Shown here: one piece after another, positions 2,852 to 49,146 of the stretch
Layout: every line of letters starts with the position of its first letter
Position numbering within the stretch: position 1 is the stretch's first letter
Position numbers and translations under genes: made by a program
Sequence record: OZ346219.1
Reading direction: 5' to 3' (one strand)
Length of the DNA: 64,000 bases
Source of the DNA: a phage
The notes under the pieces: generated by a model
What the model saw: the letters and a program-made list of their open reading frames with translations, nothing else
What the model was told of the DNA's origin: nothing
The model's database searches: none

Positions 2852-4855
2852 ATGACTCTATTATCACCGGGTTTCGAAACGAAAGAAACTACTCTCTCCA
2901 CTACCATTGTGCAATCTGCGACTGGTCGCGCGGCACTGGTAGGTAAATTCCAATGGGGTCCAGCTTTCCAGATTATTCAAGTAACTAATGAAGTTGAATT
3001 AGTTAATAAATTTGGTCAGCCGGATAATAACACCGCAGACTATTTCATGAGCGGGGCTAACTTCCTCCAGTATGGCAATGACCTGCGTGTTGTTCGTGTA
3101 TTGAATAAAGAAAAAGCGAAAAACGCAACTGCCCTAGCTGGTAACATCGAGTTTGAAATCACAAACGAAGGTTCAAACTATGAAGTAGGCGATACCATCA
3201 AGATTAAACATAACCGTCAAGATATTGAAACGGCTGGTAAAGTAACTAAAGTTGATGGTGATGGTAAAGTTAAGGGCGTATTTATCCCAACTGGTAAAAT
3301 TATCGCTCACGCTAAAGCAATCGGTGTATATCCAGAACTTGATGGCGGTTGGACGGCAGAGTTCACTTCTTCGTCAGGTAACGGTAGTGCGGTGCTGTCA
3401 GTAACTAAAATTGTTACTGATTCCGGTCTTCTGTTAACGGATCTGGAAACTTCCCGCGCCAATATCACAAATCAGACTTTCTTGACTAAACTCCAGAAGT
3501 ATGATATGCCAGCGGTAAGCGCGATCTATGCTGGTGAGATTGGCAACTCGCTGGAAGTTGAAATTCTGGCACGTAGCGCGTTCAGTGGCGCGGTAGCACC
3601 TGAATTAACTATGTATCCGTTCGGCGGAACTCGTGCCGCAGCACGCAACCTGATTCCATATGCACCGCAGAATGATAATCAATATGCATTTATTGTTCGT
3701 CGCGATGGTGTTGTGGTAGAATCCTATGTACTGTCTACTCTGAAAGGGGATAAAGACGTATACGGCAATTCTATCTACATGGACGACTTCTTTGCTCGTG
3801 GTTCTAGCCAGTACATCTATGCAACCGCTCAAGGGTGGGTAGATGGTTTCAGTGGTATTATCTCTCTTGCTGGTGGTGTTTCTGCTAACGAAGCAACGAC
3901 TGGTGGAGTTGGTGCTGATCCGTTCATCGGTGCGATGATGCAAGGTTGGGATCTGTTTGCTGAACGAGAATCTATTCACGTAAACCTGTTGATTGCTGGT
4001 GCATGTGCTGGCGAAGGCGATGCGTTCTCTACCGTACAGAAACATGCTGTTTCCATCGGTGATGAGCGTCAGGATTGCTTAGTAATGGTTTCTCCGCCGC
4101 GTAGCACTGTTGTTAATATTCCGGTGACTACTGCAATTGATAACCTGATTGCATGGCGCGAAGGTTCAGGAAACTATAATGAAAACAACATGAACATTAA
4201 TACCACTTACGCGGTTATTGATGGTAACTACAAATATCAGTATGACAAATACAACGACGTAAACCGTTGGGTTCCGTTGGCTGCTGATATTGCTGGTTTG
4301 TGCGCTCGTACTGATGCTGTATCCCAGCCGTGGATGAGTCCGGCAGGTTATAACCGTGGTCAGATCATGAACGTGGTTAAACTGGCAATTGAGCCTCGTA
4401 AGGCGCACCGCGATCGTCTGTATCAGGCCGCAATTAACCCGGTAATCGGTGCTGGCGGTGAAGGGTTTATCCTAATGGGTGATAAAACCGCTACGACTGT
4501 TCCTAGCCCGTTTGACCGCATTAACGTTCGTCGTCTGTTTAACATGCTGAAAAAGAATATCGGCGATTCAAGCAAATACAAACTGTTTGAAAACAACGAT
4601 AACTTTACTCGCGCTTCCTTCCGTATGGAGGTTTCGCAATATCTCAGCACGATTCGCTCTCTGGGTGGCATTTATGACTTCCGAGTACAATGCGACACCA
4701 CGAATAACACGCCGGATGTAATTGATCGTAACGAATTTGTTGCTAGTATGTTCATCAAACCAGCAAAATCGATCAACTATATCATGCTCAATTTCACTGC
4801 TGTTGCAACTGGTTCTGATTTTGACGAAATTATCGGTCCAGCTAACCAGGCATAA
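2852..4855 (+). CDS. 18: tail sheath protein gp18
   Basis: 667 aa; N-terminus MTLLSPG..FQWGPAFQI.QVTNEV and C-terminal NDVNRWVPLAADIAGLCARTD match T4 gp18; RBS gagg upstream. Confidence 0.96.
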   Translation: MTLLSPGFETKETTLSTTIVQSATGRAALVGKFQWGPAFQIIQVTNEVELVNKFGQPDNNTADYFMSGANFLQYGNDLRVVRVLNKEKAKNATALAGNIEFEITNEGSNYEVGDTIKIKHNRQDIETAGKVTKVDGDGKVKGVFIPTGKIIAHAKAIGVYPELDGGWTAEFTSSSGNGSAVLSVTKIVTDSGLLLTDLETSRANITNQTFLTKLQKYDMPAVSAIYAGEIGNSLEVEILARSAFSGAVAPELTMYPFGGTRAAARNLIPYAPQNDNQYAFIVRRDGVVVESYVLSTLKGDKDVYGNSIYMDDFFARGSSQYIYATAQGWVDGFSGIISLAGGVSANEATTGGVGADPFIGAMMQGWDLFAERESIHVNLLIAGACAGEGDAFSTVQKHAVSIGDERQDCLVMVSPPRSTVVNIPVTTAIDNLIAWREGSGNYNENNMNINTTYAVIDGNYKYQYDKYNDVNRWVPLAADIAGLCARTDAVSQPWMSPAGYNRGQIMNVVKLAIEPRKAHRDRLYQAAINPVIGAGGEGFILMGDKTATTVPSPFDRINVRRLFNMLKKNIGDSSKYKLFENNDNFTRASFRMEVSQYLSTIRSLGGIYDFRVQCDTTNNTPDVIDRNEFVASMFIKPAKSINYIMLNFTAVATGSDFDEIIGPANQA

Positions 4856-28414: not shown

Positions 28415-30466
28415 TTACATTTTAAATTTATCCGGCATTGCGTCTACAGATACCAGATCAGCGATAAGCTGACGTAGAGTTGCCTTATCTGCTTTCTTAC
28501 GTTCGGTTTTAGCTTCGCTAATGAAGCTGGAGAAAGACAGGTCAGAAGCAGGTTTAACAACACCTTCACGGATGAATGCATCACCGTCCGCGATCATCTC
28601 GCCAGATTCTTGTAATGCTGCCAGTTCATTTTTGTTCATAATATGTGCCTCAATGTAATAAGTTTCTTGTGAATCCGTCGATGCAGTAGCACGAGTTACC
28701 GTATCAAAGGATAACACAACACCGCGAGGAAGTAAAATCTCGCATTCTTTGTAAGCAAATGCTTTGTTACCTACTGGCAAGACAGGGATGTTTTCCGCGC
28801 CAGCAATGGAGAAAGCAACATTAGCGCCACCTTCACCGCGAGAGCCAGCCATAGAATCAACACCAGCAACGGCACTAGCCACGTTTGCATTCCAGCCGCC
28901 AAAAATGTTAGGTGCAAGGGAAGTGCTCACATAGTTTTTAAAGTAAAACGCTTTTTGCTTACGTGCAGTTTCCCACATTTGCGACCGGAAGTCCATACCA
29001 CGATACAGAATAGTACCAGGATCAAGTTTAACGCCATAGTTAGAGAAGGCATTATCCAGTGCATCGCACATCTTGACCAGTTCTTCTGGATCTGCGATTC
29101 CTTCAAACTCTTCCAGCTTACGGTCGGTTAGGAAGTTGTTCATGTTGATGTATGCTGCATCGGCATATTCGCTCAACACAAAACCTTCCGCGCCCGGCAG
29201 ATCAAGATCAATATCTGCCATCATTTCACCCATGTTGCTAGCAATTGCTTCAAACATACCGGAAGCAACATTACGTAGGGCATCGGTTTTAATCTGGGTG
29301 ATATGACTACGCAGCATTTCAGCTTTTACATCTGCTGGCATAGACTGGTCTACTCGATCCATTGCCAGAGCGGTGATCTTGTTTTCGAATACTTCCTCGC
29401 TCATGATTTCTTTTAAGCGTTTGATTGATGCTGCGATAACTTCCGCAGACAACGGATCATATTGATCCTGAACTTTTACCAGTTCGCTTACTGCGTATTT
29501 TGCATCGGCTTCGCTTTCAAAAATAGTACGCATGAAACCATAGCGAGTGATAATATCACTTGTCCAGTCATTCAGAGAACGAGCGGTTGAACGTTCTAAT
29601 GCTTGACGATCAATCAGAGTATTAAACTGTTTCTTAGGTTCGGCTTCGGTGATATCTTCTTCTGGTTTAAGATTAATTTTTTCTGGATGATTCACGTAGT
29701 CGCTGTTATATGTCGCTTGAGTTTTCAGCATTTCTTCTTTAGTCAAACGAGATTTAGCCGCTACGCGTTGTTCTGCTTCCGCGTTTCGTTCTTCTTCTGA
29801 CACAAGACTAGCCGCATATGCCTCATCTTTAGTCAGAGATTCACCCGTAGCCTTAGATACCCAGCGATCACCTAAATCACTTTCTACTTTAGTGAACAAG
29901 GATTCATCAAGTTTAATACCTTTAATCTTATCAATCGCCATCCCGCGACGCTTGACAACAACTAAAGCGATCTTTTTGCTGGTCATTACTTCCTGCTGGA
30001 ATACTTCAAACTTCGGTGTACGACGCACCAAACGCTCTATAACGCGCTTAACCAGTTCGGTCTTACCTTTCATGCGGGATACGTTAAAACGGAACATAAC
30101 AGCGTCTAATTGCGCTTTACGGGCTGTTTCCATAACCACATCAAAAGCACTTGCCATAACTGCAATCGGGTTATCGCCTAGACCATTTTTAAGCTGTACA
30201 ATACGACCGCTTTTGTTCATTTCGCACAGTACAACATGTGCGGTCTTGTCACCCATACGAATGATTTTAGGTGTTTTGTTGGTGAAGTTACAAAGACGGA
30301 CAATCACATCTTTATCGCGTGTCTGTACTGCAAAAAGCTGTTTAGGATTCTGCTTAGGCTTTAAGCACTGTACCGGAGCAATACTACCAAAGTTTTCTTC
30401 CTCTTCCGTCAACAGCCATTTCTCGAAAGATTCAATCATTAGATCGTCGATTTCTAAGTTAAACAT
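28415..30466 (-). CDS. alt: Alt ADP-ribosyltransferase (head-packaged)
   Basis: 683 aa; LFTKVES.LGD, ILYRGMD, FYFKNYVSTSLAPNIFGGW, ECEILLPRG as in T4 Alt. Confidence 0.88.
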   Translation of the reverse strand: MFNLEIDDLMIESFEKWLLTEEEENFGSIAPVQCLKPKQNPKQLFAVQTRDKDVIVRLCNFTNKTPKIIRMGDKTAHVVLCEMNKSGRIVQLKNGLGDNPIAVMASAFDVVMETARKAQLDAVMFRFNVSRMKGKTELVKRVIERLVRRTPKFEVFQQEVMTSKKIALVVVKRRGMAIDKIKGIKLDESLFTKVESDLGDRWVSKATGESLTKDEAYAASLVSEEERNAEAEQRVAAKSRLTKEEMLKTQATYNSDYVNHPEKINLKPEEDITEAEPKKQFNTLIDRQALERSTARSLNDWTSDIITRYGFMRTIFESEADAKYAVSELVKVQDQYDPLSAEVIAASIKRLKEIMSEEVFENKITALAMDRVDQSMPADVKAEMLRSHITQIKTDALRNVASGMFEAIASNMGEMMADIDLDLPGAEGFVLSEYADAAYINMNNFLTDRKLEEFEGIADPEELVKMCDALDNAFSNYGVKLDPGTILYRGMDFRSQMWETARKQKAFYFKNYVSTSLAPNIFGGWNANVASAVAGVDSMAGSRGEGGANVAFSIAGAENIPVLPVGNKAFAYKECEILLPRGVVLSFDTVTRATASTDSQETYYIEAHIMNKNELAALQESGEMIADGDAFIREGVVKPASDLSFSSFISEAKTERKKADKATLRQLIADLVSVDAMPDKFKM

Positions 30467-30997: not shown

Positions 30998-31029
30998 GTT
31001 TGATTCTCCTTTCGTTTCGGTATGTGTGC

Positions 31030-31059
31030 ATTATGGGGGATCACCGATCCCCCTGTCAA
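31030..31059 (-). promoter_or_regulatory. sigma70-like early promoter cassette with stem-loop (PeSL-like)
   Basis: TTGACA-N18-CATAAT on - strand; stem-loop gggggatcaccgatccccc. Confidence 0.6.
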
Positions 31060-31066
31060 CAATTTT

Positions 31067-31585
31067 TTAGTTATTTTTTAATTGCTCATCTTGCAATAGG
31101 GCAATCACATGCTGGCGATGTTCTTCCGATTGAGGCACACCGAAAAAGTTTGTTTTGTAGAAATACTCTAATCGGTCTTCTCGTGTGCTCTCTTCCATCA
31201 TGATCGCGGGTAGTCCGAGATTTCGGAAACGTCGCTTTTCTGCTGGCGTAAAATCACTGTAATACAACATAGAATCATCATTACCAGCAATGCTAAACTC
31301 ATCCTTCATAAAGGAGAATATTGCGTTTAAACGCTGTTTACCGTCCACGATTTCGATCTCATAGCGAGAGCCATCATCAATCTTAGCCATTGCGATAGCA
31401 CCAACCGGAAAATCATTAATAAGGTTTTCGATAAACATACGTTTGTTTTCGGTGTCCCATACTAAAGGACGCTGATAATCTGGGTTCATGCTGATATAGC
31501 CATCTTCTAACCATGCATCATAAACAGAGATGACAAAGTTTTTAGTATTGGTATAGTAACGGCGTTTAGGCGTTAAACGGTTCAT
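31067..31585 (-). CDS. DUF262 / ParB-like domain protein (stand-alone)
   Basis: start at MNRLTPKRR (RBS aggaga); motifs DYQRPLVW and IVDGKQRLNAI typical of DUF262/ParB N-terminal domain. Confidence 0.6.
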   Translation of the reverse strand: MNRLTPKRRYYTNTKNFVISVYDAWLEDGYISMNPDYQRPLVWDTENKRMFIENLINDFPVGAIAMAKIDDGSRYEIEIVDGKQRLNAIFSFMKDEFSIAGNDDSMLYYSDFTPAEKRRFRNLGLPAIMMEESTREDRLEYFYKTNFFGVPQSEEHRQHVIALLQDEQLKNN

Positions 31586-31586
31586 G

Positions 31587-31919
31587 TTATAGTCTCCTGA
31601 ATGGATCATCACGTAAATCAATATCTTTTAAGAACTCATCCCATGAATGCCGGATATTGTTCTTAATTCTCCAGATAAGCGCAGGGATTGAACGCTCTCC
31701 CATCTGGAAGTAGGGATCATATGATCCGTATGCCCAATATGCTACTACAATTCCACAATCAGCGCAATAGTATTCTATTTCACTGGCTGGCGACCAAAGT
31801 CCATCAATATGATCGGTGATCTTGCTTTCGATGTTATGGCTATGACAATCAGGGCAACGGATGCAATGACCTTGTTTATCGTAATTTGACGTTAGCGAAT
31901 ACTTAAACAATCTCATCAT
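31587..31919 (-). CDS. zinc-finger protein (CxxC...CxxC)
   Basis: 110 aa; CIRCPDCHSH ... CADCG. Confidence 0.5.
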   Translation of the reverse strand: MMRLFKYSLTSNYDKQGHCIRCPDCHSHNIESKITDHIDGLWSPASEIEYYCADCGIVVAYWAYGSYDPYFQMGERSIPALIWRIKNNIRHSWDEFLKDIDLRDDPFRRL

Positions 31920-32632
31920 AGATCCTTATTTGCTTCAAATACTGCCTTTGCGAATCCTCGCGGGGTAAGTGACCTGATAGTCTTTGTTTTCGTTCCTTTC
32001 CCGCCTAGCTTAGAATGCTGTTTACTGTACCCTTTATTAATCTGCAACGGTTTCTTTTCTGGCATTATAAAGCCTTGTCCGGTCCATAAGCAAGTCTTTT
32101 TCGGGTACATATCACGGGCGGCGATATACTCAGGAAAAGTAGGATGTTTATCATCTTCCGGCAAATAACCGCCATATTCCCACGGGTGGAACATGTAATC
32201 AGGCTTACGCCACATGCTAGAGATAACGCTTACAGGATTCTCTATCATGTAGGGAACTCCTAGCCATTCACCCAAATAAGCGGTTATTTTAGCTGCCCTT
32301 ACATCATGAACTTGAATCAATGGTCCTTGTTCTCGTTTCTTTCGTTCAAAGTGTGCAGCGCCACTAACAGCTAAATTGGTGCACGGTGGGAATGCAAAGA
32401 TAATATCCGGTTTCCCCCATTCAAGGTCCATTGCTCTTTCCAGCCAGTTCAAATCAATCCAGGTGTTTACATAGGTAATGTTTGGATGTTCAAATCTGGT
32501 ATTATACTTTTTGTATGTGCCGTGGTCGCCATCATCAGCATTAAAGCAGATCACCTTATGACCTGCTTTAGCCCATTCTAGCCCCATTATCCCCGATCCG
32601 TCAAAGTTACAGAATATTAATTTTTGTTTCAT
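31916..32632 (-). CDS. C5-methyltransferase-like protein (putative)
   Basis: 238 aa; FCNFDGSG (motif I-like), FAFPPCTNLAVSGA (PC motif IV-like), YMIENPV (ENV motif VI-like). Confidence 0.5.
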   Translation of the reverse strand: MKQKLIFCNFDGSGIMGLEWAKAGHKVICFNADDGDHGTYKKYNTRFEHPNITYVNTWIDLNWLERAMDLEWGKPDIIFAFPPCTNLAVSGAAHFERKKREQGPLIQVHDVRAAKITAYLGEWLGVPYMIENPVSVISSMWRKPDYMFHPWEYGGYLPEDDKHPTFPEYIAARDMYPKKTCLWTGQGFIMPEKKPLQINKGYSKQHSKLGGKGTKTKTIRSLTPRGFAKAVFEANKDL

Positions 32633-32874
32633 ATACGCCCCTTTAATCCAACACAGATTTTAGAAGGTTCTTTGCCGTGCCACATTAAGTAAAGTCCGTT
32701 AATGCGGCCTTGTTTTGTATATGATTCTTTTCTGATCTTCTTATAGTGTCGTGTTTCCTCAACTGATTGTTTAGAATACCAATCATAAAGGAAGAGGCAC
32801 AAAGGCCAACCATTAGCGGCCTTTGTGCAGTTATTAAGAAATTCCTTATTGCGTTTAATTAATTTTCTTTTCAC
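32629..32874 (-). CDS. hypothetical protein (81 aa)
   Basis: ATGA overlaps with neighbours. Confidence 0.5.
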   Translation of the reverse strand: MKRKLIKRNKEFLNNCTKAANGWPLCLFLYDWYSKQSVEETRHYKKIRKESYTKQGRINGLYLMWHGKEPSKICVGLKGRI

Positions 32875-33122
32875 GCTGCCCCCATTGGTTTGATAGTAAC
32901 AGAATCTAAAAGACCTTTGTTAGCCAGTTCGCGGCAAGTTTTCAGATCCGCAACTTCCCAGCCAGCCGCAATCAGGTTATCAATGAGGCTGTTAGCAACT
33001 TCTTCGCTCATGAAAGAGCACTGTTTGCCGATGGTGTAGCGTACACGCTGTAATTTCAGTTTACGGAAGCCTTTAACGTTCAGGTCTTTAGCGATTTTCT
33101 TTGCGGTTTCGATGTTAGCCAT
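32871..33122 (-). CDS. hypothetical protein (83 aa)
   Basis: conserved leader with RBS ggaga. Confidence 0.55.
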   Translation of the reverse strand: MANIETAKKIAKDLNVKGFRKLKLQRVRYTIGKQCSFMSEEVANSLIDNLIAAGWEVADLKTCRELANKGLLDSVTIKPMGAA

Positions 33123-33152: not shown

Positions 33153-33181
33153 TGATGGTTGTATTGTAGGGGAGTTATCCT
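33153..33181 (-). promoter_or_regulatory. sigma70-like early promoter cassette with stem-loop (PeSL-like)
   Basis: TTGACA-N17-TACAAT; stem-loop ggggagttatcctcccc. Confidence 0.6.
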
Positions 33182-33205
33182 CCCCTGTCAACACTTTTTA
33201 TAAAA

Positions 33206-33373: not shown

Positions 33374-33407
33374 TTTGATTCTCCTATTTCGTTTCGTTAT
33401 GTGTGTA

Positions 33408-33436
33408 TTATAGGGGATCTCCCGATCCCCGTCAAC
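33408..33436 (-). promoter_or_regulatory. sigma70-like early promoter cassette with stem-loop (PeSL-like)
   Basis: TTGACG-N17-TATAAT; stem-loop ggggatctcccgatcccc. Confidence 0.6.
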
Positions 33437-36691: not shown

Positions 36692-36720
36692 ATTATAGGG
36701 GATCACCGATCCCCTGTCAA
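36692..36720 (-). promoter_or_regulatory. sigma70-like early promoter cassette with stem-loop (PeSL-like)
   Basis: TTGACA-N17-TATAAT; stem-loop ggggatcaccgatcccc. Confidence 0.6.
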
Positions 36721-37817: not shown

Positions 37818-37846
37818 AGTATAGGGGATCGGTGATCCCCTGTCAA
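37818..37846 (-). promoter_or_regulatory. sigma70-like early promoter cassette with stem-loop (PeSL-like)
   Basis: TTGACA-N17-TATACT; stem-loop ggggatcggtgatcccc. Confidence 0.6.
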
Positions 37847-38211: not shown

Positions 38212-38240
38212 AGTATAGGGGATCACCGATCCCCTGTCAA
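38212..38240 (-). promoter_or_regulatory. sigma70-like early promoter cassette with stem-loop (PeSL-like)
   Basis: TTGACA-N17-TATACT; stem-loop ggggatcaccgatcccc. Confidence 0.6.
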
Positions 38241-49117: not shown

Positions 49118-49146
49118 ATTATAGCGGGGATTTCTCCCCGCGTCAA
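49118..49146 (-). promoter_or_regulatory. sigma70-like early promoter cassette with stem-loop (PeSL-like)
   Basis: TTGACG-N17-TATAAT; gcggggatttctccccgc. Confidence 0.55.

Follow-up and report, generated by a model that had tools for sequence, protein, structure and literature searches.

The DUF262 domain is among the most widely reused sensor/NTPase modules of bacterial immunity and is found in GmrSD/BrxU, SspE, DndI, Menshen, Dazbog and PD-T4-2. It forms a branch of the ParB/Srx fold, a fold that also includes single-domain enzymes and switches such as sulfiredoxin, SerK/SbnI, PadC and Osa. Three motifs define DUF262, namely QRxxxW, DGxQR and FxxxN, and in NsnA, DndB, GmrSD and SspE the domain is followed by a DNA-binding domain known as ParBDB (PMC12065111). 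The second motif is conserved as DGQQR in nearly 100% of GmrSD proteins (PMC4619093), and in BrxU the residues Q101 and R102 of this motif are required for nucleotide hydrolysis, not for binding (PMC8565348). Very short single-domain ParB-fold proteins, which are probably independent units, have been described in phages by a survey that was based on PF02195 and that has DUF262 outside its scope (PMC12704722). Here we describe a phage gene that encodes DUF262 without the parts that accompany it in immune systems, compare it with its relatives in other phages and prophages, and weigh several explanations of what such a protein may do. Our literature search found no paper on RB49 ORF187, on the function of ST64B Sb33, on "DGKQR" or on phage DUF262-only proteins, and no biochemical or genetic datum for any member of the DUF262-only family.

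The window, that is, the whole stretch of DNA that was analysed, comprises 64,000 nucleotides of sequence record OZ346219.1. The 2.7 kb around the DUF262 gene are 97.8–98.9% identical to the Krischvirus phages RB49, kvi, TB34 and SAP and to 60 other records, and on this identity the window is assigned to an RB49-like, T4-type coliphage (Krischvirus). The gene starts with the ATG at 31585-31583 and ends with the TAA at 31069-31067 on the minus strand (Table 1); the program-made list of open reading frames runs the frame out to a TTG at 31621, and the ATG agrees with the RB49 annotation and with the N-termini of the homologues. The same gene in RB49 is RB49p187, which is labelled "hypothetical protein" and has the alt ADP-ribosyltransferase gene on one side and a series of small ORFans on the other. 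With a pI of 5.0 the protein of the window is acidic; it contains no cysteine and is 98% identical to RB49 NP_891758. Its counterparts in TB34 and SAP are identical to each other and differ from the window protein only by S32N. Between the window and RB49 the gene has five synonymous codon changes at 102 sites and four non-synonymous ones at 414 sites.

Table 1. Coordinates of the DUF262 gene, its motifs, its operon and the flanking promoter cassettes in the window.
Feature	Coordinates	Strand	Basis
DUF262 coding sequence, 172 aa, RB49p187 homologue	31067..31585	minus	ORF, Pfam, PHROG, AF2 model
Shine-Dalgarno AGGAG, 8 nt 5' of the DUF262 ATG, within the end of the upstream gene	31594..31598	minus	sequence
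Motif I, DYQRPLVW, residues 36-43 (DUF262 QRxxxW)	31457..31480	minus	alignment of 46 relatives, hhalign
Motif II, IVDGKQRLNAI, residues 79-89 (DUF262 DGxQR; predicted phosphate-binding/hydrolysis loop)	31319..31351	minus	alignment, hhalign
Motif III and family signature, FYKTNFFGVPQSEEH, residues 142-156 (DUF262 FxxxN, then GVPQSxEH)	31118..31162	minus	alignment, by-eye comparison
Operon gene 1, 83-aa ORFan, phrog_14908	32871..33122	minus	ORF list, PHROG, RB49 annotation, PADLOC
Operon gene 2, 81-aa ORFan, GTG start, phrog_7065	32629..32874	minus	ORF list, PHROG, RB49 annotation
Operon gene 3, 238-aa C5-cytosine-methyltransferase-like, phrog_757	31916..32632	minus	Pfam, PHROG, RB49 annotation
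Operon gene 4, 110-aa zinc-ribbon-like, phrog_2993, directly upstream of the DUF262 gene	31587..31919	minus	ORF list, profile matches
PeSL cassette 5' of the operon, TTGACA-N17-TACAAT, G/C stem-loop in spacer, sigma70-like	33163..33191	minus	sequence pattern
PeSL cassette 8 nt past the DUF262 stop, TTGACA-GGGGGATCGGTGATCCCCC-ATAAT, G/C stem-loop in spacer	31030..31059	minus	sequence pattern

An earlier note on this DNA had assigned the protein to DUF262 from two motifs, DYQRPLVW and IVDGKQRLNAI. Both are found in the translation, and a profile search confirms the assignment, well outside the range of chance, with a match to Pfam PF03235 (GmrSD_N, formerly DUF262) at E 6.4e-20, 72.5 bits against a gathering cut-off of 33.2. 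The protein also matches PHROG 1583 ("unknown function"; E 6.7e-53, residues 5-172), and its best PADLOC matches are Menshen NsnA (E 4.6e-20) and PD-T4-2_A (E 7e-12); a search of the NCBIfam profiles gave no match. All three defining motifs are present, as Q38-R39-PLV-W43, D81-G-K-Q-R85 and F142-YKT-N146. Alignment to BrxU with hhalign (96% probability) places DYQRPLVW on AIQREFVW and VDGKQRL on LDGQQRI, and D81-R85 are thereby the counterpart of BrxU D98-R102: the equivalents of BrxU Q101 and R102 are kept as Q84 and R85, and BrxU Q100 is replaced by K. Motif III, FYKTNFFGVPQSEEH, was lined up by eye with BrxU FIRMNSGGTTLSYSD. Across 46 relatives (27–55% identity to the query, mean column identity 30%) 14 residues are invariant, all of them within the three motif blocks, which hold Y37, Q38, R39 and W43 in the first, D81-R85 in the second, and F142, N146, G149, Q152 and H156 in the third, where conservation is 90% or more at V150, P151 and S153. 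The AlphaFold2 model made with the 46-sequence alignment is very confident (pLDDT 93.9, pTM 0.87) and is structurally similar, by Foldseek, to solved members of the ParB/Srx fold. A profile search of the PDB gave DndI, BrxU and SspE, matched over motifs I and II only, and a single-sequence PDB search gave chance matches to sliding clamps only. These comparisons suggest a protein made up of a nucleotide-triphosphate pocket, that of the DUF262 branch within the ParB/Srx fold, and one C-terminal helix.

The absence of the DUF1524/HNH half, which had likewise been proposed, holds up, as the protein stops 16 residues past motif III and a scan of seven proteins (the five of the operon and two encoded downstream) gave no match to the DUF1524 or HNH profiles. 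A tblastn search with the C-terminal half of BrxU, which is a weak test, gave no match to a GmrD-like nuclease elsewhere in the window. The core itself is reduced: the Pfam alignment covers only positions 8-105 of the 199 in the GmrSD_N profile, most of the helical insert being absent, and the spacing between motifs II and III is 55 residues versus about 125 in BrxU. After motif III the model has only one helix (residues 154-171), and there is no ParBDB. Since both ParBDB and DUF1524/HNH are absent, the protein is not a restriction enzyme, and it probably does not sense DNA unaided. It is a minimal DUF262 variant that has neither a nuclease nor a DNA-binding domain.

The gene had further been described as the last of a tightly overlapped five-gene operon (31067-33122), and the arrangement agrees with this, with three overlaps of 4 nt each (32871-32874, 32629-32632 and 31916-31919) and one gap of 1 nt (31586); the RB49 annotation has the same five genes. 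The stop of the zinc-ribbon-like gene lies 1 nt ahead of the DUF262 start, and translational coupling is therefore possible. The zinc-ribbon-like protein has two CxxC pairs and a match to Pfam Zn_Ribbon_TF that is below the cut-off (E 5.6e-4). Its gene is not kept next to the DUF262 gene outside Krischvirus, and the protein has no homology to the genes upstream of DUF262 in RB43 or in prophages. Promoter-early stem-loop (PeSL) cassettes, which in RB49 and phi1 are both strong early promoters and terminators and which shuffle ORFan modules within hyperplastic regions (PMC2839356), stand on either side of the operon. Since these flanking cassettes have the sigma70 consensus, the DUF262 gene is predicted to be an early accessory gene that is transcribed by host RNA polymerase. 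The cassette at 31059-31030 ends the operon and drives the next gene, and downstream of the DUF262 gene lie ORFans of 59 and 70 aa, followed by alt.

Several further observations concern the surroundings of the operon. Repeated PeSL cassettes are found on the minus strand at 31030-31059, 33163-33191, 33407-33435, 36692-36720, 37818-37846, 38212-38240 and 49118-49146; they are consensus sigma70 promoters with a GGGG...CCCC stem-loop in the spacer and match the mobile promoter/terminator cassettes of RB49 and phi1. The pattern TTGACA-N18-ATAAT has 19 matches in the window versus 3.3 expected, every one on the minus strand. Within the operon, a terminator-like hairpin with a 12-bp stem (seven G-C pairs) lies within the coding region for the 81-aa ORFan (32797-32828, minus strand), and a promoter-like TTGACG-N18-TAGAAT lies within the start of the methyltransferase-like gene (32604-32575); they may be internal regulatory signals or chance matches. 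The 83-aa product of the first gene matches the PADLOC model RT_UG35, a defence-associated reverse transcriptase, at model positions 722-785 of 938 (E 2.6e-5), and could be a small phage protein that resembles a piece of a host defence protein. The methyltransferase-like protein is unusually short (238 aa); it matches PHROG 757 at 2e-90 and Pfam DNA_methylase below threshold (E 0.027), and FDGSG, PPC and ENP motifs can be seen in it by eye. Just downstream of the accessory block, as in RB49, is the gene for a 683-aa Alt-like RNA-polymerase ADP-ribosyltransferase (28415-30466, minus strand).

SAP and TB34 offer a comparison of their own. The two phages are reported to be 99.96% identical; SAP DNA is reported to contain 5hmC and glucosyl-5hmC and to be BrxU-sensitive, TB34 DNA to have no detectable modification, and the published SNP analysis gave no lead. 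Directly past its DUF262 stop, SAP has a 79-bp tandem duplication of the PeSL (positions 995-1146 of our SAP locus, L020, from OZ034687, versus 30998-31066 of the window), which is absent from TB34 and from the window.

The protein belongs to a large family, mostly of phages and prophages (PHROG 1583). A profile search of 1.84 billion cluster representatives gave 17,194 matches at E<=1e-3, a figure in which ordinary DUF262 proteins are included, 5,151 at E<=1e-10 and 73 at E<=1e-30. Among 256 retrieved relatives, DGKQR occurs in 244 and N..G..Q[ST]..H in 213, and those that match the latter pattern stop a median of 11 residues past it, so none of them has a C-terminal domain. DGKQR was rejected as a family marker as it is also present in many long bacterial DUF262 proteins; the tail GVPQSxEH, by contrast, is specific to the family, which a C-terminal signature, NFxGVPQSxEH (here NFFGVPQSEEH), defines. 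The relatives fall into two length classes, one of 150–200 aa, to which the present protein belongs, and one of 240–300 aa with a beta-rich N-terminal extension. No support was found for a correspondence between the extension of the 260–295-aa relatives and the small genes that lie upstream in RB43, ST64B or the prophages (best HMM score 5.4 bits). Public records call the relatives "DUF262 domain-containing protein" or [quoted passage not shown], and the domain assignment is therefore not itself new.

The family is present in 300 phage records from at least 10 host genera, 57 of which are Krischvirus-type records with an intact ORF and at least 95% protein identity. By the first word of their names, the other records include phages of Klebsiella, Enterobacter, Cronobacter and Citrobacter, ST64B, and phages of Moraxella, Sinorhizobium, Brevundimonas, Ralstonia and Bacteroides. 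RB43 is among the carriers listed with genomes of 140–180 kb, together with many phages of Klebsiella, Enterobacter, Cronobacter, Citrobacter, Raoultella and Erwinia. T-even genomes that contain hydroxymethylcytosine appear to be without the gene, because the 55 Escherichia-named matches are accounted for by Krischvirus and RB43-like phages. IMG/VR adds 313 further loci, many on contigs of 100–390 kb, and the copy in ST64B/Rac-type prophages of Salmonella is very common, one variant being found on at least 1000 contigs.

The neighbours of the gene were compared at 65 loci from 31 lineages (clusters at >=55% identity), with three ORFs taken per side and an all-against-all BLASTP. No neighbour family is common to more than two of the 31 lineages, and we therefore see no dedicated co-inherited phage partner; the protein would then work alone or with a host factor. 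The contexts examined in phage genomes, prophages and viral contigs are arrays of small genes, and in none of them does a nuclease adjoin the DUF262 gene. In ST64B and the Rac-like prophages of Salmonella the gene follows recE/recT and precedes xis/int, with the repressor gene on one side and int on the other. By analogy with lambdoid phages, the prophage copies look to sit in the leftward early operon, to be expressed in lytic growth and not in the lysogen, which agrees with the predicted early expression in the T4-type phage. Among the Bacillota relatives, three Lachnospiraceae MAGs (L028, L029 and L035, at about 3608-4426 of these loci) have chromosomal 272-aa proteins with an N-terminal extension, encoded directly downstream of amtB/glnK (ammonium transporter and P-II); the Paenibacillus relatives have different neighbours. 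The amtB/glnK neighbourhood was accordingly set aside as limited to one Lachnospiraceae lineage and absent in Paenibacillus.

We tentatively favour, with a confidence somewhat short of even, the reading that the protein would be a free-standing enzyme or switch that binds and hydrolyses NTPs (or transfers phosphate from them) early in infection. Transcribed from the host-sigma70 PeSL promoter, it would be made during the first minutes after infection and would need no dedicated partner encoded by the phage. The canonical pocket (QRxxxW, DG-x-QR, FxxxN) would be joined by the family-specific conserved polar residues K83, Q152, S153 and H156, which may complete a catalytic or substrate site. Its target would be one that very different hosts share, for example a conserved host protein, a small molecule or a nucleotide pool. 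Since the invariant residues belong to the putative nucleotide pocket, an enzyme or switch fits better than a passive decoy. A nucleotide-processing role of its own, one of the possibilities raised in the earlier note, is also what best fits a single-domain, acidic protein with polar residues conserved in addition to the pocket, with no conserved partners and with carriers that infect a wide range of hosts. We infer that the protein binds and hydrolyses NTPs, that it is an enzyme and not a decoy, and that it takes part in host takeover or conflict. Phage ParB proteins associated with 5mYOX enzymes call for caution here, as mutations in their pocket did not eliminate function (PMC13229309), and a conserved pocket is therefore no proof of catalysis. 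A bolder form of the enzymatic reading, which we regard as unlikely, is that these proteins would be a virus-specific enzymatic branch of the ParB/Srx fold, a free-standing NTP-dependent hydrolase or phosphotransferase in which K83, Q152, S153 and H156 would be a new active site and with which phages would, early in infection, destroy, modify or sequester a molecule of host immunity or metabolism.

An anti-defence role is the next reading to consider, and we judge it unlikely. The protein would act as a decoy or dominant-negative partner, pairing or competing with host DUF262 proteins (GmrSD/BrxU, SspE, Menshen NsnA, Dazbog, PD-T4-2) and so blocking their NTP-driven cycle. Its homology to the sensor/NTPase module of DUF262 immune systems, seen in the NsnA and PD-T4-2_A matches given above, speaks for this, as do its small size, acidic charge, predicted early expression and position in a hyperplastic accessory region; BrxU, moreover, operates by a dimer-to-monomer switch of its DUF262 domain (PMC8565348). 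However, conservation centres on the nucleotide pocket and not on a variable interface, and the family is spread over phages of very different hosts. RB49-type phages are, besides, generally regarded as having only canonical cytosines. TB34 DNA has been reported with canonical cytosines only (PMC13390438), and modification-dependent enzymes would therefore be no obvious threat to TB34 and other RB49-type phages. The same 2026 study found that BrxU, a member of the GmrSD family, restricts SAP and not TB34, whose DNA is unmodified (PMC13390438). SAP is thus BrxU-susceptible despite a copy identical to that of TB34, which means that in this case BrxU is not neutralised by the DUF262 protein.

Two further readings, each quite unlikely in our estimate, give the pocket another task. 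In the first, the protein would be an NTP-gated activator or regulatory subunit of another enzyme, for example of the co-operonic C5-methyltransferase-like protein. Phage ParB-like proteins without a DNA-binding domain are indeed required activators of T-dioxygenases (5-methylpyrimidine dioxygenases) (PMC13229309), and the gene shares its operon with the methyltransferase-like gene and lies 1 nt from the zinc-ribbon gene. Yet the methyltransferase-like family (phrog_757) occurs in 1522 phage records as against 300 for the DUF262 family, its carriers being mostly T1-like, rV5-like and Klebsiella siphoviruses without a DUF262 gene, and about 94 kb separate the two genes in VLCpiM5b, a Klebsiella phage; on these grounds a partnership with the adjacent gene was rejected, and the adjacency in Krischvirus looks like a PeSL-mediated juxtaposition. 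The genes upstream of DUF262 in RB43, ST64B and the prophages are mutually unrelated, and the lack of a neighbour conserved across lineages argues against an activator in the same way.

In the second, which we hold to be just as improbable, the protein would resemble Osa as an NTP-regulated DNase or nickase, its ParB/Srx pocket cutting the DNA of host or competitors or aiding phage replication. Reports of DNase and ATPase activities exist for ParB/Srx domains that stand alone or are fused to others (Osa, ParB-methylase), and phage early effectors have been proposed to act as DNases (PMC5512222). Metal binding by the invariant His, Glu and Gln is conceivable, and Osa is among the Foldseek matches. 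Against this stand the weakness of that match, the acidic charge of the protein and its lack of a DNA-binding domain of the kind that follows DUF262 elsewhere (PMC12065111), and the finding that cleavage by BrxU maps to DUF1524 and not to DUF262 (PMC8565348). That the gene is a decaying, functionless remnant of a captured GmrSD-type gene can hardly be credited and was rejected on conservation, for although its architecture is truncated relative to canonical DUF262 proteins, the ORF is intact in the 57 Krischvirus-type records, dN/dS between the window and RB49 is about 0.2 (a figure that few changes underlie), distant relatives keep the length and the 14 invariant residues, and the structural model is very confident.

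Nothing in these results is categorically new; the DUF262 assignment is correct and already public for relatives. Their interest lies in how widely the bare nucleotide-binding core of an immune module has been retained: it is present in hundreds of sequenced phages, in thousands of viral sequences from metagenomes and in prophages that are very common in Salmonella. The pocket is invariant, and the phage DUF262-only proteins have an extra conserved motif containing His. Once worked out, the activity would tell what an isolated DUF262 module can do, and whether viruses turn it on the host or employ it as an enzyme to some unrelated end. If the reading as a virus-specific enzyme were true, it would define a new class of anti-defence or takeover enzyme common to T4-like, jumbo and temperate phages. 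Being small and looking both soluble and non-essential, the gene lends itself to testing.

Compared with known systems, the protein differs from the GmrSD-family enzymes (BrxU, PDB 7p9k; SspE, 6jiv) in having no DUF1524/HNH, no ParBDB and a much shorter helical insert. It has DGKQR in place of their near-universal DGQQR and, after motif III, Q and H where canonical DUF262 has L and D; the GmrSD-family enzymes are found in defence islands, whereas the present protein is encoded by a phage and predicted to be expressed early. Menshen NsnA, Dazbog DzbA, PD-T4-2 A and GmrS1 of ECOR17 are similar to it in carrying DUF262 without a fused nuclease, but they are 350–400 aa or longer, contain ParBDB and always adjoin partner genes (NsnB/NsnC and others); genes for the Menshen ABC-ATPase NsnB and effector NsnC were not found downstream of the DUF262 gene. 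PadC, the short phage ParB-fold proteins (Kaljevic et al. 2025) and sulfiredoxin are of the PF02195/Srx branches, and the phage protein has no GERRxR box. Sulfiredoxin chemistry, which uses a catalytic cysteine in the GCHR loop, is excluded because the protein contains no cysteine, and a canonical ParB CTPase clamp was also rejected, as there is no PF02195 match, hhalign to pEFER ParB gave a probability of 0.8% and the likeness is at the level of the fold only. The 5mYOX-associated phage activators are likewise ParB-fold phage proteins without a DNA-binding domain that are encoded in DNA-modification operons (PMC13229309), but they are of the PF02195 branch, carry a dimerisation domain at the C-terminus and have an enzyme gene as an obligate, conserved neighbour; the DUF262 gene has no such neighbour. 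Osa of plasmid pSa (PDB 4ovb/4o7k) shows no sequence similarity to the phage protein and a structural similarity that is weak (Foldseek E 0.26, TM 0.29), and its DNase activity has no evident counterpart there; it nevertheless shares with the phage protein the state of a small, stand-alone ParB/Srx-fold protein of a mobile element, and Osa is an NTPase that is used in conflict between such elements.
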